Shown here one piece after another: positions 133-18,473 of a stretch of 64,000 bases of DNA (position 1 is its first letter; each line of letters opens with the position of its first letter). The notes under the pieces are model-generated. The model saw nothing but the letters and a program-made list of their open reading frames with translations, was not told the DNA's origin and did not search any database. Position numbers and translations under genes: made by a program. The DNA comes from Minisyncoccota bacterium (GTDB lineage Bacteria; Patescibacteriota; Minisyncoccia; JAHIHE01; JAGLIN01), in NCBI GenBank assembly GCA_041661265.1, contig JBAZUT010000004.1, forward strand, positions 63,980-127,979, in the 5' to 3' direction.

Positions 133-1170
133 ATGGTTACTATAATAATTCCAACTTACAATAGACCTGATCGTTTAAAAAGACTCTTGGGCTATTTCAG
201 TGATTCCGGAATCCATGGTAAGATAATAATTGCGGATTCAAGCACTTCTGAAAATAAAAAGAGAAACAAAGCGATCGTTTCGTCTTATTCTGGAATGGAT
301 ATTTTGTATCTTGATCACTTCGCGCCTGACACTATTGGATGGGTTAAGTGGGGAGAAGCAATCGGCCGATCCAATAGTAAATACACGGTCATTTGCGCAG
401 ATGACGATTTTATTGTCCCGAAATGCATAGATGAGGCTGTGAGCTTCCTTGAAAAAAACTCAGATTTTGTCTTGGCGGATGGGGCTTATGTTTCTTTCGA
501 AGCAGGAAAGGGGGCAGAAGAAAAATCACGATTCTTGTGGCGGCCTATCTATCCTCATAAAACAATTGATTTTTCGGATCCGGCAACCAGGGTTGCTTTT
601 CATTTTGCCAATTATTATCCTACTTTGTTTTCAGTGCATCGTACCTATATTCTCGAAATGATCTTTAAACAAACGGTGAAATATTCTATGGAAAATGGAT
701 ATATGGGAGAGCTTTTTTGTTCAATACTATCTTTGATTTATGGCAAATCGAAAAGTCTTAATAGTCTATATTCAGCCAAAGAATCTATTTCTGATTCATA
801 TAGTAAAGTTCATGAAGATGTTGATGATTTGGTTGATAGGGGCAGCTATGGAGCGCTATATAAGAAATTCAAGCAAGGCTTGGTGATAAATTTATGTAAA
901 GAAGCGAGAATAAGCGAGGAAGAAGCTGGCAAGGTCATTGATGCAGGAATGAATATATATCTTAAGAAATATTATTTTAATTCCGGAGTCAGGATTAAAA
1001 AAATTCTGCGTGAGACAAAGTTACCGTTTGGACTGAATCAAGTATTGAGATCTATTTATGTAAAAATGCTAAAGCACAAACAGCCCAAAGGCTATTCGGA
1101 TGATTTGGCCAATAGCGAAAACTTTAAGAAAATTCATGAGGCAATTATGACATATTTAGATGATAAATGA
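133..1170 (+). CDS. Family 2 glycosyltransferase (GT2).
   Basis: N-terminal IIIPTYNRPDRL motif typical of GT2 and an acidic ADD/DDD region. The longest ORF begins at GTG 85; the ATG at 133 just before the IIPTYN motif is the more likely start. Confidence 0.75.
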   Translation: MVTIIIPTYNRPDRLKRLLGYFSDSGIHGKIIIADSSTSENKKRNKAIVSSYSGMDILYLDHFAPDTIGWVKWGEAIGRSNSKYTVICADDDFIVPKCIDEAVSFLEKNSDFVLADGAYVSFEAGKGAEEKSRFLWRPIYPHKTIDFSDPATRVAFHFANYYPTLFSVHRTYILEMIFKQTVKYSMENGYMGELFCSILSLIYGKSKSLNSLYSAKESISDSYSKVHEDVDDLVDRGSYGALYKKFKQGLVINLCKEARISEEEAGKVIDAGMNIYLKKYYFNSGVRIKKILRETKLPFGLNQVLRSIYVKMLKHKQPKGYSDDLANSENFKKIHEAIMTYLDDK

Positions 1171-1350
1171 GCACGAGCAATATTCGAAAGTGTTCCAAGA
1201 CCTATGGTTGAAAAGTAGAGCATAGTGAATATATTTATTTCAGGTTGGCGCCAGGGGGATGGATTTCTCATTAAAGCTTTTTCTTAATAAAAAAAGTGCT
1301 TTTTCTCTCGAATGAGATAAATAGGCAGTATATAGCTTAATTAAAATTAA

Positions 1351-2121
1351 TTGAAAAATAATATGCAAAAAGATCCAATTGAACAATTTCGAGTTGAAGC
1401 AATTGAAAGAGCGAAATCATATCAAAACAATGAAGAGCTTCAAAGAACTTGGCAAAATTTCCACAAACAGATCGTTAAGGCGAAATATGCTTATAACTTT
1501 TTTTGGCTTGGAGTGCCAATCATCCAAGCACCACAGGACCTTCAGGCGATGCAGGAGATCATTTGGGAGGTCAAGCCGGACTTGATAATTGAAACCGGCA
1601 TAGCATGGGGCGGATCTATCGTGTTTAGCGCTTCTATGCTTGCTATTTTGGAGGCATGCGGCAAGATTGAGCATGGAAAAGTTGTTGGCATTGATACCGA
1701 TATTCGTCCTCATAATAAAAAGGCCATCCTTGCTCATCCTTTGAGCAGTAAAATCACAATGATAGAAGGGTCGAGTACGGATAAGGCAATAGTGCGGCAA
1801 GTCATGGAGATCGCAAAGACCAAGAAGAGGGTTCTGGCTTGTTTGGACAGCAATCATACGCATGATCATGTACTTGGCGAATTAAGAGCATATGCTCCAA
1901 TGATAAGCGTGGGGAGTTATTTTGTCGTTGGGGATACGGGAGTTGAAGATTTGCCTTCTGGGACGACTGATAAAGATCGGCCGTGGGGCAAAGGAAATAA
2001 TCCTAAAACGGCAGTATGGGAATTTTTAAAAGAAAATAAAGATTTTGAGATTGACAAAAGTATTGATTCAAAACTTATAATTACCGGTTCTCCCGATGGA
2101 TATTTAAAGCGAGTTAGATAA
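1351..2121 (+). CDS. CmcI / cephalosporin-hydroxylase-family class I SAM-dependent methyltransferase (sugar O-methyltransferase type).
   Basis: LIIETGIAWGGS glycine-rich SAM-binding stretch, conserved GVDTDIRPHN and CLDSNHTHDHVL motifs typical of CmcI-like methyltransferases in glycan loci. Confidence 0.7.
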   Translation: MKNNMQKDPIEQFRVEAIERAKSYQNNEELQRTWQNFHKQIVKAKYAYNFFWLGVPIIQAPQDLQAMQEIIWEVKPDLIIETGIAWGGSIVFSASMLAILEACGKIEHGKVVGIDTDIRPHNKKAILAHPLSSKITMIEGSSTDKAIVRQVMEIAKTKKRVLACLDSNHTHDHVLGELRAYAPMISVGSYFVVGDTGVEDLPSGTTDKDRPWGKGNNPKTAVWEFLKENKDFEIDKSIDSKLIITGSPDGYLKRVR

Positions 2122-2327
2122 TGTAAAATGAATTTTAAGTTGAATGCAGTAGTATTTATCAAGGGAAAAAGGGTCAAGTCTTAACATTTCACTTTATTGC
2201 ATCGATGTTCGTTTTGAAATTTGTTATACGTTAAGATTTGACTCTGTATGTATTCTGTTTCACAGAAGCTCCGGTGCCAAAATTTTAGACATAAAAAAAG
2301 AGCAGGATACTTTTTTTCCAGCTATGT

Positions 2328-3194
2328 TTAGCGTAGAAGAATAAGAATTATTCCTGCCACTCCGGCTAAGAATCCCAGTTTTTCCGCTTTTGAAAGCGAT
2401 TTTTTTTCTTTGAACAGGAACCATCCGACTATTATCGGTATGGTTGTGACGAGAACGCCTTTTAGCGGGGAGACCAGGCTGATCGGTCCTCCAAGCTGAT
2501 ACGTCCAATATAGCGCGAACAGCGATCCGATTATGGCGAGGCTGAGAGGCAGAACGATCATAAGCGTTTTCTTTGACACTTTCAATGGATTCTGTTTCTC
2601 AAGCATCAGGATCGGTATCGAGCCCAGAAAGGCTCCGCCATACCATGCCATAAGAAATGTCTCACGGTTTACGGTATATGAGAACACTTTCAGCAGGAAA
2701 CTTGCTGTTCCGAAGATCATCACCATTCCGAGCGTATAGAACAGCCATTTCTTGTCCAGAGAGGACTTCTTTCCATTGTCATTCTTCGGCAATCGGAACA
2801 GCCACATAGCCATAAAGCAGAGTCCCGCTCCAAGGATCATCTGGAAGTTCCAGAGGCTGCCTTCTTTCAGAAATATTATCGCCAGAAGAACTGCCCAAAC
2901 TTCCATGAGAGGCAGGAATAAAACGCTTCTGCTCAGGCTGATCTCAAACGCGCGCCATTGGAAATAGTTTCCGAAAGCATTGATGAGGCCGACTATCCCG
3001 ACCCAAATAAGCATCGGACCCGGATCGTTATTTCCGCTGAAAACATACAGAAAGATCGCGATAATGGCGCAGAATAGATATTGATAGAAGATGCCGTTAG
3101 CTTTTTTGGGAGCGCTATCCGTCGCCACCTTGCTCAGGATCACGCTTGCAATGTTTATTACTGCGAGTATTAATAGTGCATATTGCCAGATCAT
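2328..3194 (-). CDS. Polytopic integral membrane protein, about 9-10 TM; tentatively DMT/EamA-like transporter or glycan-associated membrane protein.
   Basis: 288 aa, hydrophobic throughout with regularly spaced TM segments, short loops, no soluble domain. Convergent with the upstream methyltransferase gene. Confidence 0.55.
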   Translation of the reverse strand: MIWQYALLILAVINIASVILSKVATDSAPKKANGIFYQYLFCAIIAIFLYVFSGNNDPGPMLIWVGIVGLINAFGNYFQWRAFEISLSRSVLFLPLMEVWAVLLAIIFLKEGSLWNFQMILGAGLCFMAMWLFRLPKNDNGKKSSLDKKWLFYTLGMVMIFGTASFLLKVFSYTVNRETFLMAWYGGAFLGSIPILMLEKQNPLKVSKKTLMIVLPLSLAIIGSLFALYWTYQLGGPISLVSPLKGVLVTTIPIIVGWFLFKEKKSLSKAEKLGFLAGVAGIILILLR

Positions 3195-3573
3195 ATTTAT
3201 TTCCTCCTTTAATAAAGTAATTTTGTTTTATATACATTCTATATTTTCCAGGGACAGTATTCGGTCGATAATTCAATATTGACCAAGTATTGTCCCCGGA
3301 GACGATGTATGATGCATAATCGGCTTTTAGTATTCTAGCCTATTCCGATATTTATTCAAAGAGCGATCTTTTCGTGGTTTGATCAACAAGCAGTAATAAA
3401 TACTGACTAAGCAGCATAACATATCCGCCATCATTAGTCAATCCAGGAACTGATCTCGGGCGATTTTTGCTTTATTTGAATGTTTTTTTGAGAGGTTATT
3501 TTCTTGCCAAAAACGGTAGATTAATTTAATATTAAAGATGTGATATTTAAGTTATCGATAAAATTTATATAGT

Positions 3574-4686
3574 ATGATGATTCCCTTGTCTCAGCCGGAT
3601 ATCGGCGAGAAGGAGCGAAAGGCCGTGTTGGACGTTTTAAAAACGCCGTGTTTGGCGTTGGGGCCGAAGTTGACAGAGTTTGAAGAAAAATTTTCCCGCT
3701 ATATCGGGACAAAATATGCGGTTGCCGTAAATTCAGGAACCAGCGGATTGCATCTCATCGTACGCGCACTCGGTATCGGGCGCGAGGACGAAGTGATAAC
3801 CTCGCCATTCAGTTTCATAGCTTCGGCAAATTGCATTTTGTTTGAAAATGCGAAACCTGTTTTTGTCGATATTGATCCCGATACTTTGAATATCGATGCC
3901 GGAAAAATTGAAAAAGCGATCACAGACAGAACGAAGGCGATAGTGGCGGTGGATATTTTAGGCCATCCGCTGGATTGGGATCGGGTTACAAAGGTGGCAA
4001 GAAAAAATAAATTAAAGATAATAGAAGACAGTTGTGAAGCTTTTGGCGCCGAATACAGGGGAAGAAAATGCGGAACATTCGGAGAGGCGTCTGTTTTTGC
4101 GTTTTATCCCAATAAACAGATGACGACAGGCGAGGGAGGAATGATCCTGACTGACAGCCGAGAGATAAAAGATCTGTGTTCAAGCATGGCCAATCAGGGA
4201 AGGAAGGTTGAAAACGGGAAATGGCTGGAGCATGTCCGTTTGGGATACAACTATCGCATGTGCGATATCAATGCCGCTTTGGGAATAGCGCAGCTCTCAA
4301 GGATCAATGATATGTTCAAAAAAAGAGACAGGGTCGCAAAGCTTTATGATAAATATCTTGGTGGCGTCGATGGTGTAAGCGTTCCCTATGTCGCTCCGTG
4401 GGCGAAGATCTCATGGTTTGTTTATGTGATCAGGCTTTCTGGTAAATATGTCCGCAAGGACAGGGACAGGATCATGGAAAAATTAAAAGACGCCGGAATA
4501 CAATGCAGTAATTATTTTCAATGCATTCATCTTCAGCCGTTCTATAAAGATCTGTATGGTTATAAACGCGGCGATTTCCCGATCGCGGAAAATATTTCCG
4601 ATCACACGGTTGCTCTGCCTTTTTATAATAACCTGAGCGAAGATAAGATAAAGTACGTGGTCAAATCCCTGAAACGGATCATATAA
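3574..4686 (+). CDS. DegT/DnrJ/EryC1/StrS-family PLP-dependent sugar aminotransferase (PglE/WbpE-like).
   Basis: 370 aa. Motifs LSQPDIGEKERKAV, AVNSGTSGLHL, SFIASAN, EDSCEAFGA and SFYPNKQMTTGEGGM (PLP-lysine region) are characteristic of the family. Confidence 0.88.
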   Translation: MMIPLSQPDIGEKERKAVLDVLKTPCLALGPKLTEFEEKFSRYIGTKYAVAVNSGTSGLHLIVRALGIGREDEVITSPFSFIASANCILFENAKPVFVDIDPDTLNIDAGKIEKAITDRTKAIVAVDILGHPLDWDRVTKVARKNKLKIIEDSCEAFGAEYRGRKCGTFGEASVFAFYPNKQMTTGEGGMILTDSREIKDLCSSMANQGRKVENGKWLEHVRLGYNYRMCDINAALGIAQLSRINDMFKKRDRVAKLYDKYLGGVDGVSVPYVAPWAKISWFVYVIRLSGKYVRKDRDRIMEKLKDAGIQCSNYFQCIHLQPFYKDLYGYKRGDFPIAENISDHTVALPFYNNLSEDKIKYVVKSLKRII

Positions 4687-4722
4687 ACAAGATCAAATAT
4701 TTCAAATAATTATATTAAATCG

Positions 4723-6660
4723 ATGCAGCTGTTGGATCGTTTGGCAAAAAGCGATATATTCAAGAAAACCGCCGGAAAAAGAACAATGTTTTTTTTGATT
4801 TGTGATATAATATTCATAACCTTATCTTTCTATCTGGCATTTATTCTGAGGTTTGACGGGCAGATACCTTCGCAGTATTTTTTTGGAAATATCCAGTCGT
4901 CAATTTTACTTGCGCTCGTTGCCTGCGTTCCGATCTTTTATCTCTCCAAGCTGTACCATTTTTCTTGGTCATATGTCAGTACGCAAGAATTGATCGCACT
5001 TTTGAGAGCGGTATCTCTCGGGTTTTTGGTCATTGGCGCATCGTTGTTTATTTTCAGGGATTATAGCGCGTTTAGCGGATTTCCCCGCTCGGTTCTCGTG
5101 ATCAGCTATTTTTTGGTTTTGTTTTCAACCGGGCTGATCCGTTTTTCGAAAAGAATTTATTTGAATATTGCGAGCGGCAAGGGTGAAGCCAAAAATGGAA
5201 AAAGGACGTTGATCGTGGGGGCCGGAGACGCGGGGGAGCAGATCCTGCGGAGCATTCAAACGGGAAAACAGAGAATGTATCTGCCGATAGGGTTCGTGGA
5301 TGACAACCAGATGAAACAGAAAGTTATAATCCATGGCTTGAAAGTCTTTGGTTTTATCGATAATATAACTGAAATCGCAAAGACTGAGAATATCGAGGAG
5401 ATGATCATTGCGCTTCCATCGGCCGGATCAAAGACCATCAAGAGAGCGGTGGAACTTGGGAGAAAGGCCGGAGTAGGGAATATAAAGATACTTCCGTCGA
5501 TGGCGGAGTTGATCGGTGGAAAAGTTTCGATCGGGAACATCAGGGAAGTTGAAGTGGAGGATCTTTTGGGCCGGGAGCCCGTGTCGGTTGATACTGAAAA
5601 GATCGAAAGATTCATAAAGGATAAAACTGTCCTGATCACAGGCGCGGCAGGTTCGATCGGAAGCGAGCTTTCAAGGCAAGTTGCAAAATTCAGACCCCGG
5701 AAGCTTCTTATTTTGGACCAAGATGAAACGGGCATGTTCTATATAGCGAATGAGCTAAAGGCGAATTTTTCCAATTTACAGATTGTTTCAGTTATTGCGG
5801 ACATCAGAGATCCGAATAAAATAAATGAAGTATTCAAGCAATTCAAGCCGAATATTGTTTTCCATGCGGCCGCCTATAAGCATGTTCCTCTCATGGAAGA
5901 GAATCCCGAAGAAGCGGTGAAGAATAATATTTTTGGCATGAAGACCGTTTCGGAAGCTTCTTTGAAACATGGCGCCGAGAAGTTTGTTCTTATATCGACT
6001 GACAAAGCGATCAATCCCACTTCGGTCATGGGTGCAACCAAGCGGGTTGGAGAAATGATATCGCAAGTTTTGAATCAAAAGGATCACACCAAGTTTGTTT
6101 CGGTGCGATTCGGGAATGTCTTGGGAAGCAGGGGGAGCGTCATTCCCACTTTCAAGGATCAGATAAAGCGGGGTGGACCTGTGAAAGTGACGCATCCGGA
6201 TATGAAAAGATATTTTATGATCACTTCCGAGGCATGTCTTTTGGTCATGCAGGCGGCGGAAATGGGCGGCGGCGGAGAGGTTTTTGTTCTGGATATGGGC
6301 GAGCAGATCAAGATCGTGGATCTTGCAAGGGAAATGATCAAGCTATCCGGCTTTAAGCCCGATGAGGATATGCCGATCGTTTTTACAGGTGTGAGGCCGG
6401 GAGAGAAATTATATGAAGAGATCCTGACTCCAAAAGAGGGTACTGTGGCGACAAAGAACAACAAGATATTCATTGCAAAGCTTGCTGCAACGGATGAACG
6501 AAAACTTAATGATGGGATGGGAAAATTGAAAAACATCATGTATAATTCAAATGGTGCTGAAATTAAGCGAGTTTTGAAGGAATTAGTGCCAAGCTATAGT
6601 GGAGTGTCGAATGTCGAAAGTGGAAAGTCCATAAAGTCAGAAAATAATTCTGGATATTAG
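4723..6660 (+). CDS. Polysaccharide biosynthesis protein CapD / PglF / WbpM-like membrane-anchored UDP-GlcNAc 4,6-dehydratase.
   Basis: 645 aa. Four N-terminal TM segments, Rossmann LITGAAGSIGSEL, YxxxK (AAYKHV) and downstream SDR-extended fold motifs. The 3' end of the CDS lies inside composite repeat copy A. Confidence 0.88.
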   Translation: MQLLDRLAKSDIFKKTAGKRTMFFLICDIIFITLSFYLAFILRFDGQIPSQYFFGNIQSSILLALVACVPIFYLSKLYHFSWSYVSTQELIALLRAVSLGFLVIGASLFIFRDYSAFSGFPRSVLVISYFLVLFSTGLIRFSKRIYLNIASGKGEAKNGKRTLIVGAGDAGEQILRSIQTGKQRMYLPIGFVDDNQMKQKVIIHGLKVFGFIDNITEIAKTENIEEMIIALPSAGSKTIKRAVELGRKAGVGNIKILPSMAELIGGKVSIGNIREVEVEDLLGREPVSVDTEKIERFIKDKTVLITGAAGSIGSELSRQVAKFRPRKLLILDQDETGMFYIANELKANFSNLQIVSVIADIRDPNKINEVFKQFKPNIVFHAAAYKHVPLMEENPEEAVKNNIFGMKTVSEASLKHGAEKFVLISTDKAINPTSVMGATKRVGEMISQVLNQKDHTKFVSVRFGNVLGSRGSVIPTFKDQIKRGGPVKVTHPDMKRYFMITSEACLLVMQAAEMGGGGEVFVLDMGEQIKIVDLAREMIKLSGFKPDEDMPIVFTGVRPGEKLYEEILTPKEGTVATKNNKIFIAKLAATDERKLNDGMGKLKNIMYNSNGAEIKRVLKELVPSYSGVSNVESGKSIKSENNSGY

Positions 6661-6837
6661 ATGCTAATTGCCCTATTGTTATATTGTCCCATTATTGAAT
6701 TGTTCTTTGCTTCAGTGGATCATGCTTTCTCAGAGTACTGACCTCCTTGGGGAGGTACAGAGCTCTCCGAGTTCTTTCGTACGTTGCCTCAGAGGATCCG
6801 ACCTCTTGGGGGAGATACGGACCTCTTAGCAAAGAGG
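6601..6837 (+). repeat. Composite repeat, copy A. A 5' (A)AAGTC/GAAAGT oligomer array is followed by an AT-rich ATTGTT segment and two GC-rich hairpin units of form CAGAG-N-GACCTC-N5-GAGGT-N-CAGAGCTCT.
   Basis: 6601-6766 aligns at about 80% identity with 8140-8286 (copy B); the same architecture recurs at about 11960-12080 and 13596-13750. The second hairpin unit is 6790-6837. The 5' part encodes the last ~20 aa and stop of the CapD-like gene. Confidence 0.7.
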
Positions 6838-6856
6838 GGAATGAATACTATTGCCG

Positions 6857-6884
6857 TTGACAGTATTATATATGGTTGTATAAT
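6857..6884 (+). promoter_or_regulatory. Sigma70-like promoter (TTGACA, 16-nt spacer, TATAAT) upstream of the AAA+ ATPase gene.
   Basis: ttgaca at 6857-6862 and tataat at 6879-6884, about 50 nt upstream of ATG 6936. Confidence 0.5.
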
Positions 6885-6935
6885 TAATATAACAAAAAGA
6901 CGCATAATTGTAATGCAATAATTACACATAGCAAA

Positions 6936-8138
6936 ATGGAGAGTAATTTCAAGAAAAGGCTTATATTAAGCCAAATAGAGAAGCATATTGATCACAAGAA
7001 TGCCATTGTGATCACCGGAATGCGACAAGTCGGCAAAACAACGCTTATGCGGTGTGTTTTTGATAAAATTATCGACAAACCCAAACTTTGGTTCGATTTT
7101 GATAATCCCCTGGATCAAAAAATATTTGAAGATATTGAATATCGGAATATTTATGAAAATCTGAAAAATCAATCGAAAGCAGGGGACGACGAGAGAATTT
7201 TTGTTTTTGTCGATGAAATTCAAAACTTTCCTGAGATCACAAAGGTGATGAAGTTTCTGATAGGTCAGTATGGCGTGAAGTTTTTTGTGACAGGGTCATC
7301 AAACTTTTATCTAAAAAACCTTTTCCCGGAGTCATTAAGCGGGCGAAAATTTCTTTACGAATTGTCCCCCCTGTCATTTCGAGAATATTTATATTTTAAG
7401 GAGAAAATCTCATTTGAGGATGCGGAAAATTGGAATATCGATAAGGCCATTAAATCTTCAAATTTGATCGATTTCAAAAAGCTGGAAGTGGATTACACGG
7501 AATTCATTACGTTTGGAGGGTTTCCTGAAGTTTGCCTCACGAAGGATCTGGCGACAAAGCGAGAAGTTCTAAAAAACATATTTGTGTCTTTTTTCGAAAA
7601 AGATCTGAAAATTATTTCAGACTATAGGGATATCCGTGAACTTCGGGACCTCATTCTTCTTCTTGTCCCGCGGGTCGGTTCAATGCTTGATGTGACGAAA
7701 ATTGCTTCCGAACTGGGCGTAAACAGAGTGAAGATATATGAATACCTCGCTTTTTTGCAAGGCACTTTCTTCATAAAACTTATCCCAAAATATTCAAAGA
7801 GCATCGATCGCACGGTGGCTGGAGGGAGGCGTGTGTATTTTTCTGATACGGGCATTCTTAATTCGATTGGAAGCGTGAATGAAGGGCAGCTTTTTGAGAA
7901 TGCAGTTATCAATCAGCTGGACAGATTCGGAGAAATCCATTTTTATAGGGGAAAAAGCGGGTCGGAAATAGATGCAATATTGGATAAAAAAATTGCTTTT
8001 GAAATTAAAACTAAAGGAACAAAGGAATATTTAAGGGATCTGGAAAAGAGATCCGAAGGAATTGGAATTTCAAACAGTTATTTGGTAAGCAGGGATTATG
8101 CGAATATTCCAAAAACGATCTTTGGGTCGATGCTTTAG
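6936..8138 (+). CDS. AAA+ ATPase of the AAA_14/DUF4143 type (P-loop NTPase with C-terminal DUF4143-like region).
   Basis: Walker A ITGMRQVGKTTL and Walker B VFVDEIQ. 400 aa, the typical length and architecture of the archaeal-ATPase-like DUF4143 family. Unrelated to the flanking glycan genes and bracketed by repeat copies A and B. Confidence 0.8.
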   Translation: MESNFKKRLILSQIEKHIDHKNAIVITGMRQVGKTTLMRCVFDKIIDKPKLWFDFDNPLDQKIFEDIEYRNIYENLKNQSKAGDDERIFVFVDEIQNFPEITKVMKFLIGQYGVKFFVTGSSNFYLKNLFPESLSGRKFLYELSPLSFREYLYFKEKISFEDAENWNIDKAIKSSNLIDFKKLEVDYTEFITFGGFPEVCLTKDLATKREVLKNIFVSFFEKDLKIISDYRDIRELRDLILLLVPRVGSMLDVTKIASELGVNRVKIYEYLAFLQGTFFIKLIPKYSKSIDRTVAGGRRVYFSDTGILNSIGSVNEGQLFENAVINQLDRFGEIHFYRGKSGSEIDAILDKKIAFEIKTKGTKEYLRDLEKRSEGIGISNSYLVSRDYANIPKTIFGSML

Positions 8139-8139
8139 C

Positions 8140-8312
8140 GGAGTGTCGAACGTCGGAAGTAGAAAGTAGAAAGTCTATAAAGTCGGAGAAAGATTCCGAA
8201 TATTAGATACTAATTGTTAGATTGTTCTATTGTTGAATTGTTCACTTTCTCAGAGCACTGACCTCGCGGTCGAGGTGCAGAGCTCTGTGAAAAGGGGTGC
8301 AGACCCCTTGCG
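8140..8312 (+). repeat. Composite repeat, copy B, starting 2 nt after the ATPase stop codon.
   Basis: Direct repeat of 6601-6766 (GTCGAA/AGTAGAAAGT oligomers, ATTGTTGAATTGTTC, CAGAGCACTGACCTCGCGGTCGAGGTGCAGAGCTCT), followed by a second hairpin AAGGGGTGCAGACCCCTT at 8291-8310. Confidence 0.7.
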
Positions 8313-8347
8313 CTAAAGGTTTATATTTACTAAAATAAAACAATCAT

Positions 8348-9274
8348 ATGGAGGAAATCGGGAGAAAAGAGGGTGAGGAGGTTTATTTAATCGATTATGT
8401 AAAAGTGATGGTAAAAAGAAAAAAAGTGATCACGACGGTGGTCTTGAGCGTTGTTGTTTTGGCGACAATCGTCAGTTTGGTCATGAATAGGGTATACAAG
8501 ATCGAATCCGTGATTGAGATCGGTACGGTATCGGTCGGTGCGCCGATAGAGAGCCCGGAACAGGTGTTGCAGGGGATCAAAAGGGATGTCTATGGCGCCA
8601 TGGTCAGGGAAAAGCTTGATATTTCCGAAACGGATTTCCCTAAGATAAAGACAGGGAATACTTCCGGGACGAATTTGATCTCAATGGAAATTAATTCCAA
8701 TAGGGCTGATCAGGCGAAGAGTGTTTTGGATGAGTTGAGCAATCTGATCATAGCCGGTCATCAGGAAAAGACAAAAGACGCAAAAGCACTTCTGGAAAGC
8801 GAGATTGAGTTAAGGAAGAAGGATATTGAAACTGTCGGTAAGGACGTTGAAAGAGTGAAAGCTAAGATCGTTTTTTTGGAGGAAGAAAGAAATAATCTGG
8901 ACGCGAAAGTTGCAGCTTTGCAGAAAGTGCTGGTTTATCGGCAGGATGCAGGAAGTCAGTTCGCCCTTTTTGATACAAAAGAAAAACTGGCATCAAAAAA
9001 ACAGGAAATAGAGAATACTTATATAGAAGTCAATTCCTCGGAGAACAATATAAATGCAATAAATGGGCAGATTAATATACTGGAAAAACAGATCTCTGAT
9101 ATCCGCATGACAAAAGTGGTGAAAGGTCCGGCTGTTTCTGAGAAAATTGTCAGTCCGGATATTGTTTCCAATCTGATTATTGCAGTGATATTCGGGTTAT
9201 TCCTGGGCATATTCCTGGCTTTTGTGATGGAGTGGTGGGAGAAGAACGGCAAAGAAATGAAAAGTGAAAAATGA
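8348..9274 (+). CDS. Wzz-like polysaccharide co-polymerase (chain-length determinant family).
   Basis: 308 aa. N-terminal TM after a charged leader, long coiled-coil central region, C-terminal TM (LIIAVIFGLFLGIFLAFV): PCP-1 topology. Confidence 0.65.
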   Translation: MEEIGRKEGEEVYLIDYVKVMVKRKKVITTVVLSVVVLATIVSLVMNRVYKIESVIEIGTVSVGAPIESPEQVLQGIKRDVYGAMVREKLDISETDFPKIKTGNTSGTNLISMEINSNRADQAKSVLDELSNLIIAGHQEKTKDAKALLESEIELRKKDIETVGKDVERVKAKIVFLEEERNNLDAKVAALQKVLVYRQDAGSQFALFDTKEKLASKKQEIENTYIEVNSSENNINAINGQINILEKQISDIRMTKVVKGPAVSEKIVSPDIVSNLIIAVIFGLFLGIFLAFVMEWWEKNGKEMKSEK

Positions 9275-9297
9275 AAAGTGAAAAATGAAAAGTGAAA
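9256..9297 (+). repeat. Three tandem copies of a 14-bp unit (AATGAAAAGTGAAA) spanning the Wzz stop codon.
   Basis: Perfect tandem copies at 9256-9269, 9270-9283 and 9284-9297. The last codons (EMKSEK) and the stop at 9272-9274 are encoded by the repeat. Confidence 0.85.
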
Positions 9298-9433
9298 AAG
9301 TAAATAGCACAAAGTGAATAGTAAATCGTAAATGGTAAATCGAGTTTATTGGTTGATTGTTGAGAGAAGTTAATAAAAATCAAGCGAAACTGAGCAAGTG
9401 GCATTTCCTAAAACCGAGTTTGGGCCAGATGCG

Positions 9434-9476
9434 CCTAAAGCTTAGTTTTAGGAAAATCCTAAAACTAAGCTTTAGG
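9434..9476. repeat. Perfect 19-bp inverted repeat with a 5-nt loop (CCTAAAGCTTAGTTTTAGG aaaat CCTAAAACTAAGCTTTAGG), copy 1.
   Basis: The identical palindrome (loop ataat) recurs at 48400-48442. It lies 10 nt upstream of the ATG of the O-antigen-ligase-family gene and about 160 nt downstream of wzz. Extra CCTAAAAC half-site at 9410-9417. Confidence 0.85.
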
Positions 9477-9486
9477 AAGCAGGTCT

Positions 9487-11901
9487 ATGAGTAAAAGAAA
9501 GAAAAATAGATATAGACAGGATGATATTGTTAACAATCCCAAAAGGGACTATACGAAATATTATCTCTTTATTATAAAGGCAGGGATCGTCGCTTGTCTT
9601 TTTTTGCCGTTGCTCGTTGTTCATTCCCATATGTTTGCAATGCAGGTAGGAAAGGTTCTAGTGTTCCGGACTATTATTGAAATAATAGCCTTTTTTTATA
9701 TTATTTTGATTATCAAAAAAGAGGAGTATCGTCCGAAATGGGGTTTGTTCGAGCTTTCAATCGCGGCATTTATAATGGTTTATCTATTGACTTCTTTAAC
9801 GGGTGTGAACTTTCTCAGGAGTTTTTGGGGAACAACTGAAAGAATGGGTGGGTTTTTCACAATGCTCCACTTCTGGGCATATTTTATGATCCTGATTAGC
9901 GTGTTTCGAACAAAAAAAGACTGGAAGATACTTTTTTCTGTTTCGATCTTTGTGGCGGTCATTTCGTCAATGTATGCGTTCGGGCAGAGCGCATTTTTTT
10001 GGAGAGATATTCTTCCATGGATAAAATCCGAAAATATCAATATATATACGGAAATAGCCAGATATGTTACGACTGATAATTTTGTCATCATCAATGACTG
10101 GAGAACTTTCGGTATGATCGGGAATGCAGGGCCCTTTGCGGGATATATTATGTTTAATGTCCTTCTGGGGTTGTATGTTATCAGTTCGGCAAGAAGCATT
10201 AAAAATAAATTCAGTGGCATTATCGCACTCTTGTTTCTATTTTCCGCTTTGTCTGGTGCAGGCACGAGAAGTGCATACATCGCAATTCTGGCGGGATTTG
10301 CCGTTTTATCGGTTATAAATGTCATTTTGTCCAAAAAAAAGAAGATGAGGATCGTTTCCGTCTTGTTCATTCTATTATTAATTATTGGAAGCGGAATTGT
10401 TTGGGCTAATAAGAAAGAGGATTGGGTCAAAAATAGTACTATACTTTCGAGGATGGTTAGTATATCTTTTGAAAATAATGAATCCAGGACTATGACGTGG
10501 GAATCATCCTGGAAAGGATTTGCCGATAGGCCCTTATTGGGAGCGGGGCCCGAGAATTATAATGTTGTTTTTAATAAGTATTTCAATCCTCTGCATTTCA
10601 CGGGATATGGTTCGACTTCTTGGTACGACAAGGCTCATAATATATTTCTTGATATTTTGACGACTATGGGAATTGTGGGACTGTTGAGCTATCTTGGCAT
10701 CTTTGCCATAATTTATTGGTTCTTGATCAAAAACAGGAGAAAAGCGCGGGAGAATCTGCCGGCATTTGCGCTGATCGCTTCGCTTCCCGTTGCTTATTTT
10801 GTCCAGAATATGTTCTGGTTCGATGACTTTTCAAGTTATCTGATGCTTTTCATGTTTTTCGCATTCGTGAGCAATTTTTTCAACCATGGACTTGGGTTTG
10901 AATATAGTGCCGAAAAGGGAAAGAAAGTTACGGATTTTATCCGGAGGAAATTATCTCTCAAGGCTTCTGCTGCGGGCGGCGATAGCGGGAATATCATTAT
11001 CGCGGTTGCGGGAATTGTTTTAATTTTTTCCACTTATTCTGCCAATTTCAAAGCTTGGAGATTCCATGATCTGACAACCGTTGCTGTCGGGGCAATCTCG
11101 CTTAATGCAGATGATTCATTTCTGTGGTACAAGGAAGCTATGAAAAATTCGACTTACCTTGGGAGGCAGGAGCTTTATAAGCGTTTTGGAAATTACGCCA
11201 ATGCGAAATATGTGCTTTCTGATCCGGGAGATCGGCGCAAGACGGAAGAATTCCAAGCCAATCTGAAGTTTGCCATATCCGAGATGGAAAATGCGGTAGC
11301 GGAAAACAAAGAAGACGTGCAATTCTATTCGCTTTTGGGTGCGCTCTATAACAAATATTACAGCAATTTCAGGGAGCCGGAATATATAGACAAAGCCGAA
11401 AAGACTTTGCAAAGGGCGGTTGAGCTCAGTCCTGAGCGCGAGACTGTGTATTATGAATATGGCCAGGCTATGGTTTTCAAAAAAGATTACAAGAAAGCAA
11501 TCGAGTTATTTAAGAAGGGGGTTGACCTGAACCCTCCTGTTCCCATCTCGCATTGGTATCTTGGAATGGCTTATCTTAATGCAAAGGAATATGGTTTGGC
11601 GGATTCTGAGATCAGTGAGGCGATCAAGCTGGGGTATGGATATAAAACGATCAAAGATTTGCTCAGTATCACTCCGATCTATATCGAACTCAAGGACTAT
11701 CAAAGACTTGAGAAGATATATCTGGATGTTTTGGAACTTGATCAAAATAATCCTGAAATCTATGTATCTCTGGCGTTGGTCTATAGAGAGCTTGGTGACA
11801 AAACCGGTGCGATCAAGATGGCGGAAAAGGCTATATCTTTGGACGAATCATTCAGGGTTGAAGGGGAGAAATTTATTGATGAATTGGAAGGTGGGAAGTA
11901 G
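9487..11901 (+). CDS. Wzy_C/O-antigen-ligase-family polytopic membrane protein with C-terminal TPR repeats; candidate O-oligosaccharyltransferase (PglL/PilO-type) or O-antigen polymerase/ligase.
   Basis: 804 aa. About 12 TM segments with a large loop carrying the ligase-family signature (GAGTRSAYIAILAG, AHNIFLDILTTMGIVG) and a soluble C-terminal ~300 aa of TPR-like repeats. Confidence 0.75.
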   Translation: MSKRKKNRYRQDDIVNNPKRDYTKYYLFIIKAGIVACLFLPLLVVHSHMFAMQVGKVLVFRTIIEIIAFFYIILIIKKEEYRPKWGLFELSIAAFIMVYLLTSLTGVNFLRSFWGTTERMGGFFTMLHFWAYFMILISVFRTKKDWKILFSVSIFVAVISSMYAFGQSAFFWRDILPWIKSENINIYTEIARYVTTDNFVIINDWRTFGMIGNAGPFAGYIMFNVLLGLYVISSARSIKNKFSGIIALLFLFSALSGAGTRSAYIAILAGFAVLSVINVILSKKKKMRIVSVLFILLLIIGSGIVWANKKEDWVKNSTILSRMVSISFENNESRTMTWESSWKGFADRPLLGAGPENYNVVFNKYFNPLHFTGYGSTSWYDKAHNIFLDILTTMGIVGLLSYLGIFAIIYWFLIKNRRKARENLPAFALIASLPVAYFVQNMFWFDDFSSYLMLFMFFAFVSNFFNHGLGFEYSAEKGKKVTDFIRRKLSLKASAAGGDSGNIIIAVAGIVLIFSTYSANFKAWRFHDLTTVAVGAISLNADDSFLWYKEAMKNSTYLGRQELYKRFGNYANAKYVLSDPGDRRKTEEFQANLKFAISEMENAVAENKEDVQFYSLLGALYNKYYSNFREPEYIDKAEKTLQRAVELSPERETVYYEYGQAMVFKKDYKKAIELFKKGVDLNPPVPISHWYLGMAYLNAKEYGLADSEISEAIKLGYGYKTIKDLLSITPIYIELKDYQRLEKIYLDVLELDQNNPEIYVSLALVYRELGDKTGAIKMAEKAISLDESFRVEGEKFIDELEGGK

Positions 11902-13821: not shown

Positions 13822-15615
13822 ATGAAAGTTGACGATCAACAGCTGAAAATATTTCTTATAGACACAAACCTTATTACTAAGGAAGATTTGGAAATTGCTC
13901 TGACCGAATCGAGGGATACGGGGACAAGTCTTGAGGATGTTGTTTTGAAGAAAAATCTGGTAACCGAGGAACAGCTGAACAAGCTCAAGGCTTATATCCT
14001 TGGGATACCTTATGTTGATCTGAAGAAAAGCGAAGTGGATCCGGATATCCTGAAGATCATACCCGAACAGGTCGCAAGGCAATATAATGCTGTTGCATTC
14101 GATAAACAGGGCAACCAACTGAAGGTTGCCATGACCGACCCGAATGATCTGCAATTCTTGGATTTTATAAGCAAAAAAACGAGCTATGAAATAATTCCCT
14201 GTCTGACGGACAGCGAGAGTATCAAAAAAGCGCTGAAACTTTTTCAGAAAAGCCTCAAAGCGGAATTCGGAGCCCTTGTGCAGGAAGTCGGTATCAAAGA
14301 GGGCGCGGAAGGAGAACCGCTGGTCATAAAGGCTGAGGGAGAGGCTGAAGGAGAAGGTATTGACCTGAAGAAGGCGGCGGAAGACCTTCCTGTCGTGAAG
14401 ATCGTAGATACGCTTCTGAAGCATGCGATCTTGCAGGGTGCAAGCGATATTCATATAGAACCTGAGGAGAATGATCTGGTTGTGAGATATAGGATCGACG
14501 GAGTTCTCCACGACGCCATGACGCTTCCCAAGATGGCTTTTGCGGGAATTGCGGCAAGGATAAAAGTCCTTTCGAATTTGAAGATAGACGAACACCGGCT
14601 TCCTCAGGACGGAAGATTTAAAGTTGAAACGAGCGATTACAGGGTGGCGTTCCGTGTTTCCATAATCCCTGTTTTTGACGGAGAGAAAATAGTTATGAGG
14701 CTTCTTGATGAATCGAGCGACAGAGTGCTGACCCTGGAGCAGATGGGTTTCAGAAAAAGAGATTTCGAAGTGGTGAAAAGGGGGGTGGAAAAACCAAATG
14801 GAATGATCCTTGTCGTAGGTCCGACAGGATCCGGAAAAACCACGACTCTGTATACGATCCTTGGAATGTTGAACACGCCGGATGTGAACATCAGCACGCT
14901 TGAGGATCCGATCGAATATAGGATGGCAAGAGTGAATCAATCCCAGATCAACGCCAAGATAAATTTCACTTTCGCGGCAGGCCTCCGGTCGCTACTCCGC
15001 CAGGATCCGGACATTATAATGGTGGGAGAGATCCGAGACAGGGAAACCGCCGAGCTTGCAGTTCATGCGGCCCTTACAGGACATCTCGTCCTTTCAACTC
15101 TCCATACCAGCAGCGCCGCGGGAACGCTTCCCCGGCTCACGGACATGGGAGTTGAATCGTTCATGCTCGCTTCGACCGCGAATATCATAGCATCCCAAAG
15201 GCTTGTGCGAAGAGTATGCCAGGACTGCAAGGGAGAGTTCAATATAGACAATGAGACATATGAAAGCTATTCCAAGTCTTTTGATACGGACCAGATCGCA
15301 GAATTATTAAAAAAGGAAAAGATCGTCAGCGGAAGCTTCAAGAACAACAAGGATCTGTGGCTTAGTATCAAATTTCAGAAGGGCAAGGGGTGCAACAAAT
15401 GCCGAAATGAGGGATATAGGGGAAGGGCCGGAATATATGAAGTTCTGGAAATAACCGAAAAAATAACCAAGCTTATCAATACGAATGCCACAAGCGACGA
15501 CATTGAGAATGAATCCAGAAAAGAAGGAATGACCACAATGATGGAAGACGGGCTGATCAAGGCTGTTATGGGAGTGACGACCATTGAAGAGGTTATGAGG
15601 GTTACGACGGAATAG
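13822..15615 (+). CDS. pilB: Type IV pilus assembly ATPase PilB (GspE family) with an N-terminal GSPII_E_N domain.
   Basis: 597 aa. Walker A GPTGSGKTTT, Asp box, His box, tetra-Cys motif CQDCK...CNKCRNEGYRGR and the N-terminal MshE/GspE-N-like region. Confidence 0.92.
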   Translation: MKVDDQQLKIFLIDTNLITKEDLEIALTESRDTGTSLEDVVLKKNLVTEEQLNKLKAYILGIPYVDLKKSEVDPDILKIIPEQVARQYNAVAFDKQGNQLKVAMTDPNDLQFLDFISKKTSYEIIPCLTDSESIKKALKLFQKSLKAEFGALVQEVGIKEGAEGEPLVIKAEGEAEGEGIDLKKAAEDLPVVKIVDTLLKHAILQGASDIHIEPEENDLVVRYRIDGVLHDAMTLPKMAFAGIAARIKVLSNLKIDEHRLPQDGRFKVETSDYRVAFRVSIIPVFDGEKIVMRLLDESSDRVLTLEQMGFRKRDFEVVKRGVEKPNGMILVVGPTGSGKTTTLYTILGMLNTPDVNISTLEDPIEYRMARVNQSQINAKINFTFAAGLRSLLRQDPDIIMVGEIRDRETAELAVHAALTGHLVLSTLHTSSAAGTLPRLTDMGVESFMLASTANIIASQRLVRRVCQDCKGEFNIDNETYESYSKSFDTDQIAELLKKEKIVSGSFKNNKDLWLSIKFQKGKGCNKCRNEGYRGRAGIYEVLEITEKITKLINTNATSDDIENESRKEGMTTMMEDGLIKAVMGVTTIEEVMRVTTE

Positions 15616-15729
15616 ATAAGCTTATCAGTTTGCAGCTTCTCGGCTATTTGAAGTATGGAGAAGCTCCGAGATGGAATGTTCGGATATATTTTTTATGAGT
15701 TAAACAGCTAAAAAGCTAAGAAGCTAATC

Positions 15730-16944
15730 ATGTCTCTATTATCCTACAAGGCGCGAACGATCAAGGGGGAGACGAAAAGCGGAAAATTGGTCGCAAAAGA
15801 CAAAAACGAACTGGCAAAAATGCTTCGGGCTCAGAATCTGATCCTGGTTTCAGTTGACGAAGAAAATAAGGGAGCCGGCATGCAGATCAAAATGCCTCAC
15901 TTCTTTCGGCGCGTCAAAGCAATGGACAGGATGCTTTTCACGAGGCATCTCGGGATCATGTTGAAGGCCGGACTTTCGTTTTCAAGGGCGCTGACTGTGC
16001 TTTCCGAGCAGACCGGAAATGCATATTTCAAAGAAGTGCTGGAAAAAGTGCAGGATGATGTGCAAAAAGGGAGCCAGCTCGGAGAGAGCCTTGAAAAACA
16101 TCCCAAAGCTTTTGATGAGCTTTTTGTGAACATGATAAAAGTCGGGGAAACCGGAGGCAACCTCGAAGAAGTTTTGGATCTTCTCTATGTTCAGATCAAG
16201 AAGAGCAATGAATTGACCTCAAGAGTGAAGGGCGCCATGATGTATCCGGCCGTGATCATATTCGCGATGTCCGTGGTGGGAGCTCTCATGATGACATTCG
16301 TTCTTCCTTCGATACTTTCGATCTTCCGCGATATGGATGTGCCGCTCCCGCTTCCGACCAAGATATTGATATTCATAAGCGATACCATTCAGAAGCACGG
16401 AGTATTGCTTCTTATCGGAATAATCGCTTTTTTCTCAATATTAATCTCGATTATCAGGACTCCAAGAGGAAAGAAGGGATTTGATTATATATTGCTCCGT
16501 TTGCCGACGATAAAAACGATAATAATGAAAATAAACATGGCCCGTTTCTGCAGGACGCTGAGTTCCATGATCGCCAGCGGTGTTTCGATCGTAAAGGCGC
16601 TTGAGATCGTTTCCAGAATATTGGGCAACACCTATTATAGGGAGGCTGTAGGCAAAGCTTCCGCCAGCGTTCAGAAGGGCACGACATTGAGCGAATTCTT
16701 TACGCAATATCCAAAACTATTCCATCCGATGATGGTTCATATGGTTGAAGTGGGAGAGGAGACAGGTACTCTCGAAGAAACCTTGAAGCAGGTTGCGGAG
16801 TTCTATGAAGAGGATGTAGAGCAGGTTACGGAGAATATGTCGGCTATAATAGAACCGATCCTTATGCTTGTGATAGGTGCCGCGGTCGGAGTTTTCGCGG
16901 TTGCGATCATTCAGCCGATGTATGGAATAATGGGGAAGATGTAG
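15730..16944 (+). CDS. pilC: Type IV pilus inner-membrane platform protein PilC (GspF family).
   Basis: 404 aa. Two T2SF repeats (each with GxxLxxAL, ExG/ETG and a GETGG-like motif) and three TM segments. Confidence 0.9.
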   Translation: MSLLSYKARTIKGETKSGKLVAKDKNELAKMLRAQNLILVSVDEENKGAGMQIKMPHFFRRVKAMDRMLFTRHLGIMLKAGLSFSRALTVLSEQTGNAYFKEVLEKVQDDVQKGSQLGESLEKHPKAFDELFVNMIKVGETGGNLEEVLDLLYVQIKKSNELTSRVKGAMMYPAVIIFAMSVVGALMMTFVLPSILSIFRDMDVPLPLPTKILIFISDTIQKHGVLLLIGIIAFFSILISIIRTPRGKKGFDYILLRLPTIKTIIMKINMARFCRTLSSMIASGVSIVKALEIVSRILGNTYYREAVGKASASVQKGTTLSEFFTQYPKLFHPMMVHMVEVGEETGTLEETLKQVAEFYEEDVEQVTENMSAIIEPILMLVIGAAVGVFAVAIIQPMYGIMGKM

Positions 16945-17937: not shown

Positions 17938-17957
17938 TCGGAAATAATATCATATAA

Positions 17958-18467: not shown

Positions 18468-18473
18468 ACGATC

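Follow-up and report, generated by a model that had tools for sequence, protein, structure and literature searches.

A WaaL-fold membrane transferase with an outward TPR domain in a Patescibacterial surface-glycan locus: a candidate terminal glycan ligase or general O-oligosaccharyltransferase

Positions 85-11901 of the window, the whole 64,000-nucleotide stretch of DNA that was analysed, form a genuine cell-surface glycan gene cluster, the downstream part of a surface-glycan locus that exceeds 20 kb; the host is a Patescibacterium of the Paceibacteria type. The cluster ends with the gene (9487..11901, + strand) for an 804-residue WaaL-fold (Wzy_C) membrane transferase with a predicted extracytoplasmic C-terminal TPR domain. 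The probable role of this enzyme is to transfer the completed glycan onto an acceptor at the cell surface, and the best explanation, put forward tentatively, is that it acts as a terminal undecaprenyl-diphosphate (Und-PP)-glycan ligase or general O-oligosaccharyltransferase (O-OTase), with surface proteins generally as acceptors. A role dedicated to pilins, proposed in the first-pass annotation, is not supported.

The glycan genes continue for at least 10 kb upstream, and the window start cuts the locus. Every gene named in the first-pass annotation is found and all its coordinates are reproduced, whereas a Wzz-type gene at 8348-9274 had been overlooked. The suspected Patescibacterial origin agrees with the record of an identical protein as 'O-antigen ligase family protein [Candidatus Paceibacterota bacterium]'. 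To our knowledge, such a host lacks an outer membrane that would enclose a periplasm, and the lipid A-core acceptor of WaaL is not expected in it; a Patescibacterial host thus makes the classical lipid A-core acceptor unlikely, in line with the earlier argument from a missing LPS outer membrane.

The sugar-nucleotide logic ascribed to the locus holds, with both enzyme families confirmed. The membrane-anchored PglF/CapD-type UDP-HexNAc 4,6-dehydratase (4723..6660, + strand; PF02719, 389 bits, plus CoA_binding_3) displays four N-terminal TM helices and, among solved structures, matches C. jejuni PglF/WlaL best (5BJU, 298 bits; PseB, 146 bits). The DegT-family PLP sugar 4-aminotransferase (3574..4686, + strand; PF01041, 411 bits) scores 338 bits against the PseC model, under the cutoff of 423, and, among solved relatives, 249 bits against perosamine synthetase, 208 bits against ArnB and 161 bits against PglE. 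The bacillosamine-type first steps that had been assigned thus stand for the dehydratase, which is PglF-like, but not specifically for the aminotransferase, which is no nearer to PglE than to perosamine synthetase or ArnB. Together, the two enzymes would supply a UDP-4-amino-4,6-dideoxy-HexNAc-type sugar, a PglF-plus-aminotransferase pathway being classic for pgl systems.

Assembly and decoration of the glycan may involve (i) a family-2 glycosyltransferase (GT2; 85/133..1170, + strand; PF00535, 28 bits; NCBIfam TIGR04440, 167 bits, cutoff 70), which has no TM helix and shares 54% identity with its counterpart in relative L003; (ii) a CmcI/rhamnosyl-O-methyltransferase-family (CmcI/RMNT) sugar methyltransferase (1351..2121, + strand; PF04989, 296 bits), which, at 94 bits, falls below the NCBIfam equivalog cutoff of 400; and (iii) many tailoring enzymes encoded upstream, the product being a putative decorated undecaprenyl-diphosphate-linked glycan. 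The GT2 reading frame is listed from a GTG at 85, and its first ATG, at 133, is the likely true start. The methyltransferase has no counterpart in relatives L003 and L005 and is therefore a variable decoration gene. The sole transporter-like gene of the locus, encoding an EamA/DMT-superfamily polytopic protein (2328..3194, - strand; PF00892, 36.7 bits; at least eight TM helices), is also its best-conserved gene (86% identity to L003), and its product might act as a flippase.

Neither the window nor the upstream 10 kb encodes a priming phosphoglycosyltransferase, a Wzx flippase, an ABC exporter or a PglD-like acetyltransferase; the search for PglD-like and PglC-like genes that had been advised therefore finds neither in this span. 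The priming enzyme and the flippase serving the locus would be encoded elsewhere in the genome. The AAA_14/DUF4143 ATPase (6936..8138, + strand; PF13173, 100 bits; PF13635, 81.5 bits) is an insertion unrelated to the glycan pathway: it is missing between the PglF and Wzz genes of L003 and L005, and consensus scans place ahead of it a terminator-like hairpin (6746-6771) and a sigma-70-like promoter of its own with a 12/12 match (6857-6884).

The 804-residue protein reads as a WaaL/PglL-superfamily enzyme with intact active-site residues. The profile comparison that had been suggested finds Wzy_C (72 bits, cutoff 31.7; residues 247-403), whereas PglL_A and Wzy_C_2, the Pfam marker domains of the PglL/PglS class, are missing. 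Among solved structures, WaaL is nearest in both fold and sequence; in addition, the family profile matches Neisseria PglL (9RMK) at E 1e-10, which, with the intact active site, bears out the earlier placement in the PglL superfamily. In the outer catalytic loop (residues 308-385; 10408..10641, + strand), R334, G352, G354, D381 and H384 are invariant across 42 homologs, and R261 (10267-10269) lies just ahead of the loop. R261, R334 and H384 align with R191, R265 and H313 of WaaL, and H384 also with His349 of PglL.

Hydropathy, the positive-inside rule and a helix map give 13 TM helices and put the N-terminus on the inside and the 308-385 loop on the outside; the thirteenth helix (residues ~500-522) is predicted to place the TPR domain (residues 523-804; 11053..11898, + strand) on the outer side together with the catalytic loop. 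Pfam locates TPR repeats at residues ~590-790, and the helix map of the domain has pLDDT above 90. Wzy_C followed by a C-terminal TPR is the architecture of the protein O-OTases WsfB and PglL (PMC2943079), and the suggestion that the TPR tail suits a protein acceptor stands. The domain is nevertheless no proof of a protein substrate, since TPR domains also scaffold polysaccharide export, as that paper cites (Whitfield and Mainprize 2010, ref 99 of PMC2943079); likewise, a Wzy_C domain and WaaL-like features alone do not tell O-OTases from lipid-directed ligases (PMC12645811).

The Wzy_C+TPR family spans at least 422 species-level loci, Patescibacteria-wide; the best 80 of these, to which all neighbour counts refer, are all Patescibacterial and comprise full-length matches at 28-57% identity. 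A Bac_transf priming phosphoglycosyltransferase adjoins the family gene in 47 of the 80 loci (median gap ~135 bp) and a Wzx flippase lies within 10 kb in 24, so that the family sits with the other membrane steps of the Und-PP pathway. The surrounding glycan genes vary in almost every locus; among close relatives, the Wzy_C+TPR gene diverges at a housekeeping-like rate (51-66% identity, versus 58-69% for PilB). A conserved enzyme amid completely changing glycan genes runs counter to what is usual for Wzy. Since the family persists across classes whereas the glycan genes beside it differ, it behaves, as far as sequence comparison goes, as a ligase and not as a repeat-unit polymerase. In addition, Wzt is found near the family gene in 4/80 loci, and in locus L007 the family gene lies directly beside a Wzm/Wzt ABC exporter; the ABC-exporter pathway uses no Wzy polymerase and needs a ligase, and this placement therefore counts for a ligase.

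At the terminal step, the outer-face WaaL-fold site, with its Arg/Arg/His residues, would bind the Und-PP-glycan and transfer it en bloc to an acceptor hydroxyl, the extracytoplasmic TPR domain presenting the acceptor to the catalytic site. The acceptors would most likely be secreted and surface proteins in general, i.e. S-layer or wall proteins, possibly pilins. By domain description, not by sequence, the closest architecture appears to be that of a Gram-positive S-layer O-OTase, WsfB from Paenibacillus alvei, which combines Wzy_C with a C-terminal TPR in the same way, whereas the TPR of WsaB from Geobacillus stearothermophilus resides on a separate neighbouring protein, WsaA (PMC2943079). 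Like the Patescibacterial host, the WsfB and WsaB hosts are without an outer membrane, and, as for the 804-residue family, the genes belong to, or adjoin, a variable surface-glycan cluster that has a Bac_transf-type priming enzyme; the glycans reported for these systems are of the ABC-exporter as well as the methylation-capped type (PMC2943079). No S-layer gene or glycoprotein target is recognised here, and the Wzz neighbour in the present clade is a further difference from WsfB/WsaB.

PglL (Neisseria, 9RMK; general) and PglS (ComP-specific) belong to the same superfamily, PglS also being described with 13 helices and a periplasmic C-terminal domain (PMC12800693); nevertheless, the PglL_A and Wzy_C_2 domains that characterise these classes are missing from the 804-residue protein, and its C-terminal domain is a 280-residue TPR superhelix. 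WaaL from Cupriavidus metallidurans (7TPG/7TPJ) preserves the same Arg/Arg/His positions and the same Und-PP-glycan donor logic, but shares 15% identity and displays neither the thirteenth helix nor the TPR domain.

The adjacent Wzz gene introduces an alternative left unweighed in the first-pass annotation, in which the 804-residue protein is a Wzy-type repeat-unit polymerase inside the ring of this Wzz, with the TPR domain scaffolding the elongating chain outside the cell. Topology, homologs and family profile identify the neighbour (8348..9274, + strand) as a 308-residue polysaccharide co-polymerase (PCP) of the Wzz type that lacks a kinase domain: TM helices at residues 27-45 and 276-294 surround a coiled-coil ectodomain, and the family profile matches Wzc (E 5e-8) and FepE. 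The protein alone reaches 19.5 bits against Pfam Wzz, under the cutoff of 25.5; PF02706 and PF13807 are present in most of 137 homologs. The PCP would imply chain-length-controlled polymerisation in the close clade, and the 804-residue gene lies directly downstream of it in the window and in relatives at 51-67% identity, with no other polytopic Wzy candidate in the window or 10 kb upstream. Wzx is common near the family gene, as noted, and Wzy and WaaL share one superfamily fold, with Wzy known within Wzz, e.g. WzyE/WzzE (PMC10030265). In the close clade the polymerase is a serious rival. Nevertheless, the Wzz neighbour is limited to that clade, tblastn with the Wzz protein finding it in 0/80 of the species-level loci, and the DegT-PglF-Wzz module also occurs at loci without the Wzy_C+TPR gene, one of them with its own 453-residue, Pfam-less polytopic Wzy candidate. 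These observations, together with the conservation across classes and the placement beside ABC-transporter-dependent clusters, leave the polymerase doubtful. Slightly less likely than the polymerase is a ligase with a non-protein acceptor, such as a membrane glycolipid anchor (LTA- or lipoglycan-like) or other envelope polymer, which would make the enzyme a monoderm WaaL analogue. The WaaL match, the common active-site residues, the failure of domain content to separate ligases from O-OTases and the use of TPR domains in polysaccharide pathways are all consistent with it, but WaaL lacks both the thirteenth helix and the sizeable outward-facing C-terminal domain, an architecture that is described for O-OTases, and no lipid-anchor synthesis genes are conserved beside the family gene in the loci compared.

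Far less probable is an O-OTase dedicated to the pilins of the neighbouring type IV pili, as are TfpO/PilO, TfpM or PglS. The two pilus clusters reported near the glycan locus are real, comprising (i) PilB, PilC, pilin-like genes, PilM and others (13822..24088, + strand) and (ii) a second cluster at 33337-49216 (- strand). The order Wzy_C-TPR, histidine kinase, response regulator, PilB, PilC, pilins is kept in four related genomes, PilB lies 120 bp downstream of the family gene in a distant Doudnabacteria locus (L050), and the pilin-like proteins of the window are Ser/Thr-rich (Ser+Thr, 18-22%). However, the synteny is not kept beyond the close clade (51-67% identity), and PilB occurs within 10 kb of the family gene in only 2/80 loci, by a rough estimate about chance level. 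Because the priming enzyme and Wzx are linked so much more often, pilus proximity fails as evidence of pilin glycosylation, and the 804-residue gene stands beside the pilus genes through chance in the local gene order. In the window, the nearest pilin-like gene lies 5.1 kb from the 804-residue gene, beyond four others (histidine kinase, response regulator, PilB and PilC), whereas known pilin-specific O-OTases, among them TfpO/PilO and TfpM, which also carry Wzy_C without PglL_A or Wzy_C_2, are encoded beside their pilin (PMC12645811). The junction between the 804-residue and kinase genes bears, by the weak evidence of a consensus scan, a terminator-like hairpin (12087-12103, + strand) overlapping a promoter-like site (12093-12121), and an IS200 transposase is inserted there in relative L004. 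The best major-pilin candidate, of 224 residues (48542..49216, - strand; N_methyl, 28.8 bits; KGFTLLELL motif; 21% Ser+Thr), is encoded 36.6 kb from the 804-residue gene; were pilins glycosylated, this protein could serve as an acceptor.

The 804-aa protein encoded at 9487-11901 (+) carries a Wzy_C domain (PF04932; residues 247-403; 72.1 bits against a gathering score of 31.7) followed by C-terminal TPR repeats, and, as judged from its sequence and predicted structure, belongs to the WaaL/PglL superfamily as an intact transferase of Und-PP-glycans, its repeats facing the same side of the membrane as the active site. The AlphaFold2 model, built on 42 homologs (pLDDT 90.9, pTM 0.88), displays a predicted WaaL-like polytopic fold, and a Foldseek search with a separate model of residues 1-535 returned WaaL as the only significant match. 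A phmmer search of the N-terminal 579 residues alone against the PDB gave no match; the PDB matches came from a 17-sequence profile of the membrane domain, which detects WaaL (44.8 bits, E = 6e-11) and 9RMK (44.1 bits, E = 1e-10) equally well. The latter is a 610-residue sequence labelled 'Oligosaccharyltransferase', which we take to be Neisseria PglL from its HSHN motif at His349, a histidine that is essential in that enzyme. The profile alignments place R261, R334 and H384 in coincidence with WaaL R191, R265 and H313, and H384-N385 opposite H349-N350 of 9RMK, so that an equivalent of the catalytic histidine of PglL is present. R334 and H384 do not vary across the 42-sequence alignment; R261 is conserved to at least 90% there and is invariant in smaller alignments. 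Hydropathy, the positive-inside rule and the helices of the model predict 13 transmembrane helices, an internal N-terminus and a catalytic loop (308-385) exposed on the outside; the thirteenth helix (about 500-522) would bring the 280-residue TPR domain, the TPR tail of the first-pass annotation, to the outer face.

Comparison with characterized enzymes highlights a shared core and different appendages. WaaL belongs to the same Pfam family and shows the same polytopic fold and Arg/Arg/His arrangement on the outer face, but it has no large extracytoplasmic C-terminal domain comparable to the thirteenth helix and TPR region of the 804-aa protein. In the PglL/PglS class, Wzy_C is accompanied by PglL_A (PF15864) and Wzy_C_2 (PF11846) (PMC12645811), neither of which was found in the Pfam scan of the 804-aa protein at E-values up to 0.01. 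PglS comprises a 13-helix core with an outward C-terminal domain (PMC12800693). The S-layer O-oligosaccharyltransferase (O-OTase) WsfB and PglL are described as Wzy_C followed by C-terminal TPR, with WsaB relying on a separate TPR partner (PMC2943079), and it is this described architecture that likens WsfB to the 804-aa protein.

A protein search recovered 97 relatives, nearly all of them combining Wzy_C and TPR, whose organism names are Patescibacterial or an unclassified 'bacterium', with none from another phylum. Scanning one genome per species with a 14-sequence alignment, the 42-sequence alignment being too diverse for this purpose, identified at least 422 loci of this Wzy_C-TPR family; the best 80 of these are full-length matches of 28-57% identity from Yanofsky-, Portnoy-, Kuenen- and Doudnabacteria, Paceibacterota and Minisyncoccia, some of the binned MAG labels being generic or doubtful. 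Neighboring genes in the best 80 loci, labelled by tblastn, blastp and Pfam, include (i) a Bac_transf priming enzyme, which adjoins the family gene in 47 loci at a median gap of about 135 bp and lies on the opposite strand in 45 of 46; (ii) Wzx, within 10 kb in 24 loci; and (iii) SecA, downstream in 22 of the 52 loci whose sequence extends 5 kb or more past the family gene. In individual loci the adjacent glycan genes differ almost every time. The scan shows that the Wzy_C-TPR family is conserved across many Patescibacterial lineages, in every case bordering a glycan cluster that changes rapidly. This is the new, if modest, result, the fold, chemistry and domain architecture of the 804-aa protein being already known; the literature searched contained no description of the Wzy_C-TPR family in Patescibacteria. 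A close clade (51-67% identity) keeps the order DegT, PglF, Wzz, Wzy_C-TPR, histidine kinase, response regulator, PilB, PilC and pilins, the upstream decoration genes varying already inside this clade. Other Patescibacteria have the DegT-PglF-Wzz module but no Wzy_C-TPR gene with it, and one such locus carries its own Pfam-less polytopic Wzy candidate.

The ORF map, together with Pfam and NCBIfam scans, bore out every gene named in the first-pass annotation, and the Patescibacterial origin supposed there agrees with the record of an identical 804-aa protein from a Candidatus Paceibacterota MAG. From the left, the glycan locus comprises a GT2 glycosyltransferase (85-1170; its first ATG, at 133, is the start used earlier), a CmcI-type methyltransferase (1351-2121; 296 bits), an EamA transporter on the opposite strand (2328-3194 (-)), a DegT aminotransferase (3574-4686; 411 bits), a membrane-anchored CapD/PglF-type dehydratase (4723-6660; 389 bits, four transmembrane helices, CoA_binding_3), an AAA_14/DUF4143 ATPase (6936-8138 (+)), a Wzz-type polysaccharide co-polymerase of 308 residues (8348-9274; two transmembrane helices around a coiled-coil ectodomain) and the 804-aa protein. 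The Pfam Wzz score of the 308-aa protein itself is sub-threshold (19.5 bits), the majority of its 137 homologs contain PF02706 and PF13807, and its family profile matches Wzc (E = 5e-8) and also FepE; by these sequence features, which are those of a PCP protein, the gene is read as a genuine Wzz-type co-polymerase. The ATPase gene is absent between PglF and Wzz in the close relatives L003 and L005, as is the CmcI gene from relatives, and it has its own promoter-like site (6857-6884; a perfect 12/12 sigma-70-like match) downstream of a hairpin (6746-6771); on both grounds the ATPase gene would seem to be an orphan gene that was inserted recently and is possibly mobile or related to defense.

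The window start cuts the locus, which on a contig of the same organism runs on upstream of the GT2 for at least 10 kb of further glycan genes. The stretch directly before window position 1 (459-9926 of contig L009, from another assembly of the organism) continues the locus with a TylC3-like sugar C-methyltransferase, RmlC-like and RmlD-like proteins, a Methyltransf_21 protein, a GT1 and radical-SAM genes, namely one SPASM enzyme and two B12-binding enzymes. This radical-SAM and methyltransferase content suggests that Patescibacterial glycans are C-methylated or tailored to an unusually high degree; radical-SAM genes recur in the glycan clusters of the relatives L003, L006 and L007. Over the 64-kb window and the 10 kb upstream (74 kb), no Bac_transf (PglC/WbaP-type) priming enzyme, Wzx flippase, Wzm/Wzt exporter, PglD-like acetyltransferase or second Wzy-like polytopic protein was found, so the pathway as seen is incomplete; SecA is likewise missing from this stretch. 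WsfB-type enzymes are encoded in or beside a surface-glycan cluster with a Bac_transf priming enzyme; the Patescibacterial family has such a neighbor in the 47 loci mentioned, and in the window the glycan cluster is present with no priming enzyme within 74 kb. No LPS genes occur among the genes of the window and its flanks, no S-layer gene was identified, and the host lineage is not known to have LPS.

The EamA/DMT gene is the best conserved of the glycan locus (86% identity to L003, compared with 54-78% for its neighbors) and, with Wzx missing, its sole transporter-like gene, a candidate flippase or metabolite exporter. Besides, independent assemblies of the same organism (L001 and L009 from ENA, L002 and L010 from Logan) break in or next to the glycan locus, with breakpoints inside PglF, inside EamA and a short way before the 804-aa gene, which hints at strain-level variation in this region.

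As regards sugar chemistry, the dehydratase scores 298 bits against C. jejuni PglF/WlaL (5BJU), compared with 152 for FnlA-type enzymes, 146 for PseB, an inverting dehydratase, and 140 for CapE; an N-terminal transmembrane region, CoA_binding_3 and an SDR domain closest to PglF uphold its PglF-type assignment. The aminotransferase, previously called PglE-like, is retained as a DegT-family 4-aminotransferase, but the closer assignment weakens, PglE (1O61; 161 bits) ranking behind perosamine synthetase (249 bits) and ArnB (208 bits). It is a reasonable inference that the two enzymes yield UDP-4-amino-4,6-dideoxy-HexNAc. A single-sugar route resembling ArnB/ArnC/ArnE-F, considered from the combination of EamA, DegT and GT2, was set aside, the GT2 having no membrane anchor and the route no other support.

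Because the transferase stays conserved while the adjoining glycan genes turn over, the enzyme must recognize features that do not vary; these would be Und-PP, a conserved acceptor and possibly the sugar at the reducing end. The family gene is regularly found with the priming enzyme and a flippase, and also with ABC-exporter pathways, in which the glycan is polymerized in the cytoplasm. From what is established for Wzy, WaaL and PglL, we infer that the family behaves as a ligase or oligosaccharyltransferase and not as a repeat-unit polymerase. This ligase-like behavior, together with the O-OTase-like 13-helix core, the outward C-terminal domain and the TPR repeats, favors a terminal glycan ligase with a surface-protein acceptor, of the general protein O-OTase type, a reading that is put forward tentatively, the absence of PglL_A and Wzy_C_2 counting against it. 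A Wzy polymerase paired with Wzz is less likely, yet a serious alternative. In its favor, the Wzz gene adjoins the 804-aa gene in the window, L003 and L005, and the window and the 10 kb upstream hold no other Wzy candidate. Against it, the window's Wzz protein is without a match in all 80 species-level loci, the family is not restricted to Wzx/Wzy clusters (its gene abuts a Wzm/Wzt exporter in L007, and the Wzt ABC exporter is nearby in four of the 80), and there is no co-variation with the repeat unit, the transferase keeping 28-57% identity across classes beside variable glycan genes. A ligase with a non-protein acceptor, to be considered because Wzy_C/WaaL-like domains do not by themselves tell O-OTases apart from lipid-directed ligases (PMC12645811) and because TPR domains also scaffold polysaccharide export and hence are not protein-specific, is judged unlikely.

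The narrower proposal of an O-OTase dedicated to pilins had been argued partly from two nearby type IV pilus clusters, and both are present in the window (13822-24088 (+) and 33337-49216 (-)). The link to pilins itself does not survive the comparison across loci, in which type IV pilus genes, including PilB, lie near the family gene in only 2 of 80, a 57%-identity relative and a locus from Doudnabacteria in which PilB follows after 120 bp; by a rough estimate, this is about what chance predicts for one to two pilus clusters per megabase. Pilin-dedicated O-OTases such as TfpO/TfpM are encoded beside their pilin substrate and general ones are not (PMC12645811), whereas the nearest N_methyl gene to the 804-aa gene, at 17050, is 5.1 kb downstream, past the histidine kinase, response regulator, PilB and PilC, and 36.6 kb separate the 804-aa gene from the best major-pilin candidate (224 aa; 48542-49216 (-)). 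In addition, the 253-bp gap before the kinase gene contains a terminator-like hairpin and a promoter-like site, and one relative tolerates an IS200 transposase at this junction. The pilin-like proteins are rich in Ser and Thr; nevertheless, with the failure of proximity, the one pilin-specific argument, a dedicated pilin system becomes very improbable, and pilus-gene proximity should not serve as functional evidence for the Wzy_C-TPR enzyme. A general system may still act on pilins among other substrates.

Patescibacteria live as episymbionts, are ultra-small and mostly uncultured, and attach to hosts by way of their cell surface; to our knowledge almost nothing has been established on how that surface is glycosylated. 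The Wzy_C-TPR enzyme provides a concrete, testable candidate for the terminal surface-glycosylation step in a lineage not known to have LPS. A broader and more speculative proposal, which we regard as possible, is that the family is the general surface-protein O-glycosylation enzyme of Patescibacteria, decorating S-layer, wall and pilus proteins with hypervariable methylated glycans. The outward TPR domain would act as the 'substrate arm' of one conserved WaaL-fold transferase, and the fast-changing cluster beside its gene would supply the hypervariable, heavily methylated glycans. If true, the family would determine the surface identity under which these episymbionts meet hosts and phages. 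The enzyme could also be of practical interest as an O-OTase-like protein that may tolerate diverse glycans.

Around the pilus clusters, a 201-aa protein with six transmembrane helices and no Pfam match (47739-48344 (-)), encoded between the major-pilin candidate and PilB2 (45937-47637), might be a divergent or truncated prepilin peptidase. The interval 49217-50392, about 1.2 kb, which separates the major-pilin gene from a PAS histidine kinase gene, holds only two implausible ORFs without family matches and gives no Rfam match at the gathering threshold. Pilus cluster 1 is followed by a signalling block (24471-31543 (+)) with a HAMP protein, a FIST-domain protein, a histidine kinase, a receiver, a double-receiver protein and two Pfam-less polytopic proteins (242 and 246 aa). 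Between the two lies tRNA-Arg(TCT) (24167-24239), the single hit of the Rfam and tRNA scan of the window, which returned none within the glycan locus.

The distance from the family gene to secA is 76 bp in the family locus L008 and 821 bp in L007, with a median of 4.5 kb, and secA also follows in L006; a coupling to secretion was set aside in view of that median, and the arrangement is probably inherited synteny. The suggestion that O-OTases may act at the Sec translocon is a speculation in PMC12800693.

A second family, with a polytopic membrane domain and C-terminal TPR (590-620 aa, 9-12 transmembrane helices), is encoded beside Wzy_C-TPR in 8 of the 80 loci (L032:4923-6776, L044:6898-8670, L036, L046, L061, L068, L070 and L077), its membrane part having no Pfam match; YfhO-like and PMT_2-like GT-C proteins also occur near family loci, and fusions of membrane enzymes with TPR seem a recurring theme there. 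Three species carry tandem Wzy_C(-TPR) paralogs (L062:8064-12184, L076:3837-8189 and L081:1200-5467), which could represent a polymerase and ligase pair or two enzymes with different acceptors, Acinetobacter, with its two O-OTases, offering a comparison for the latter. Finally, the 618-aa metagenomic protein P0095 is annotated with both Bac_transf (PF02397) and Wzy_C (PF04932) and would be a fusion of a priming enzyme with a ligase-like domain, which fits the two acting in one pathway.
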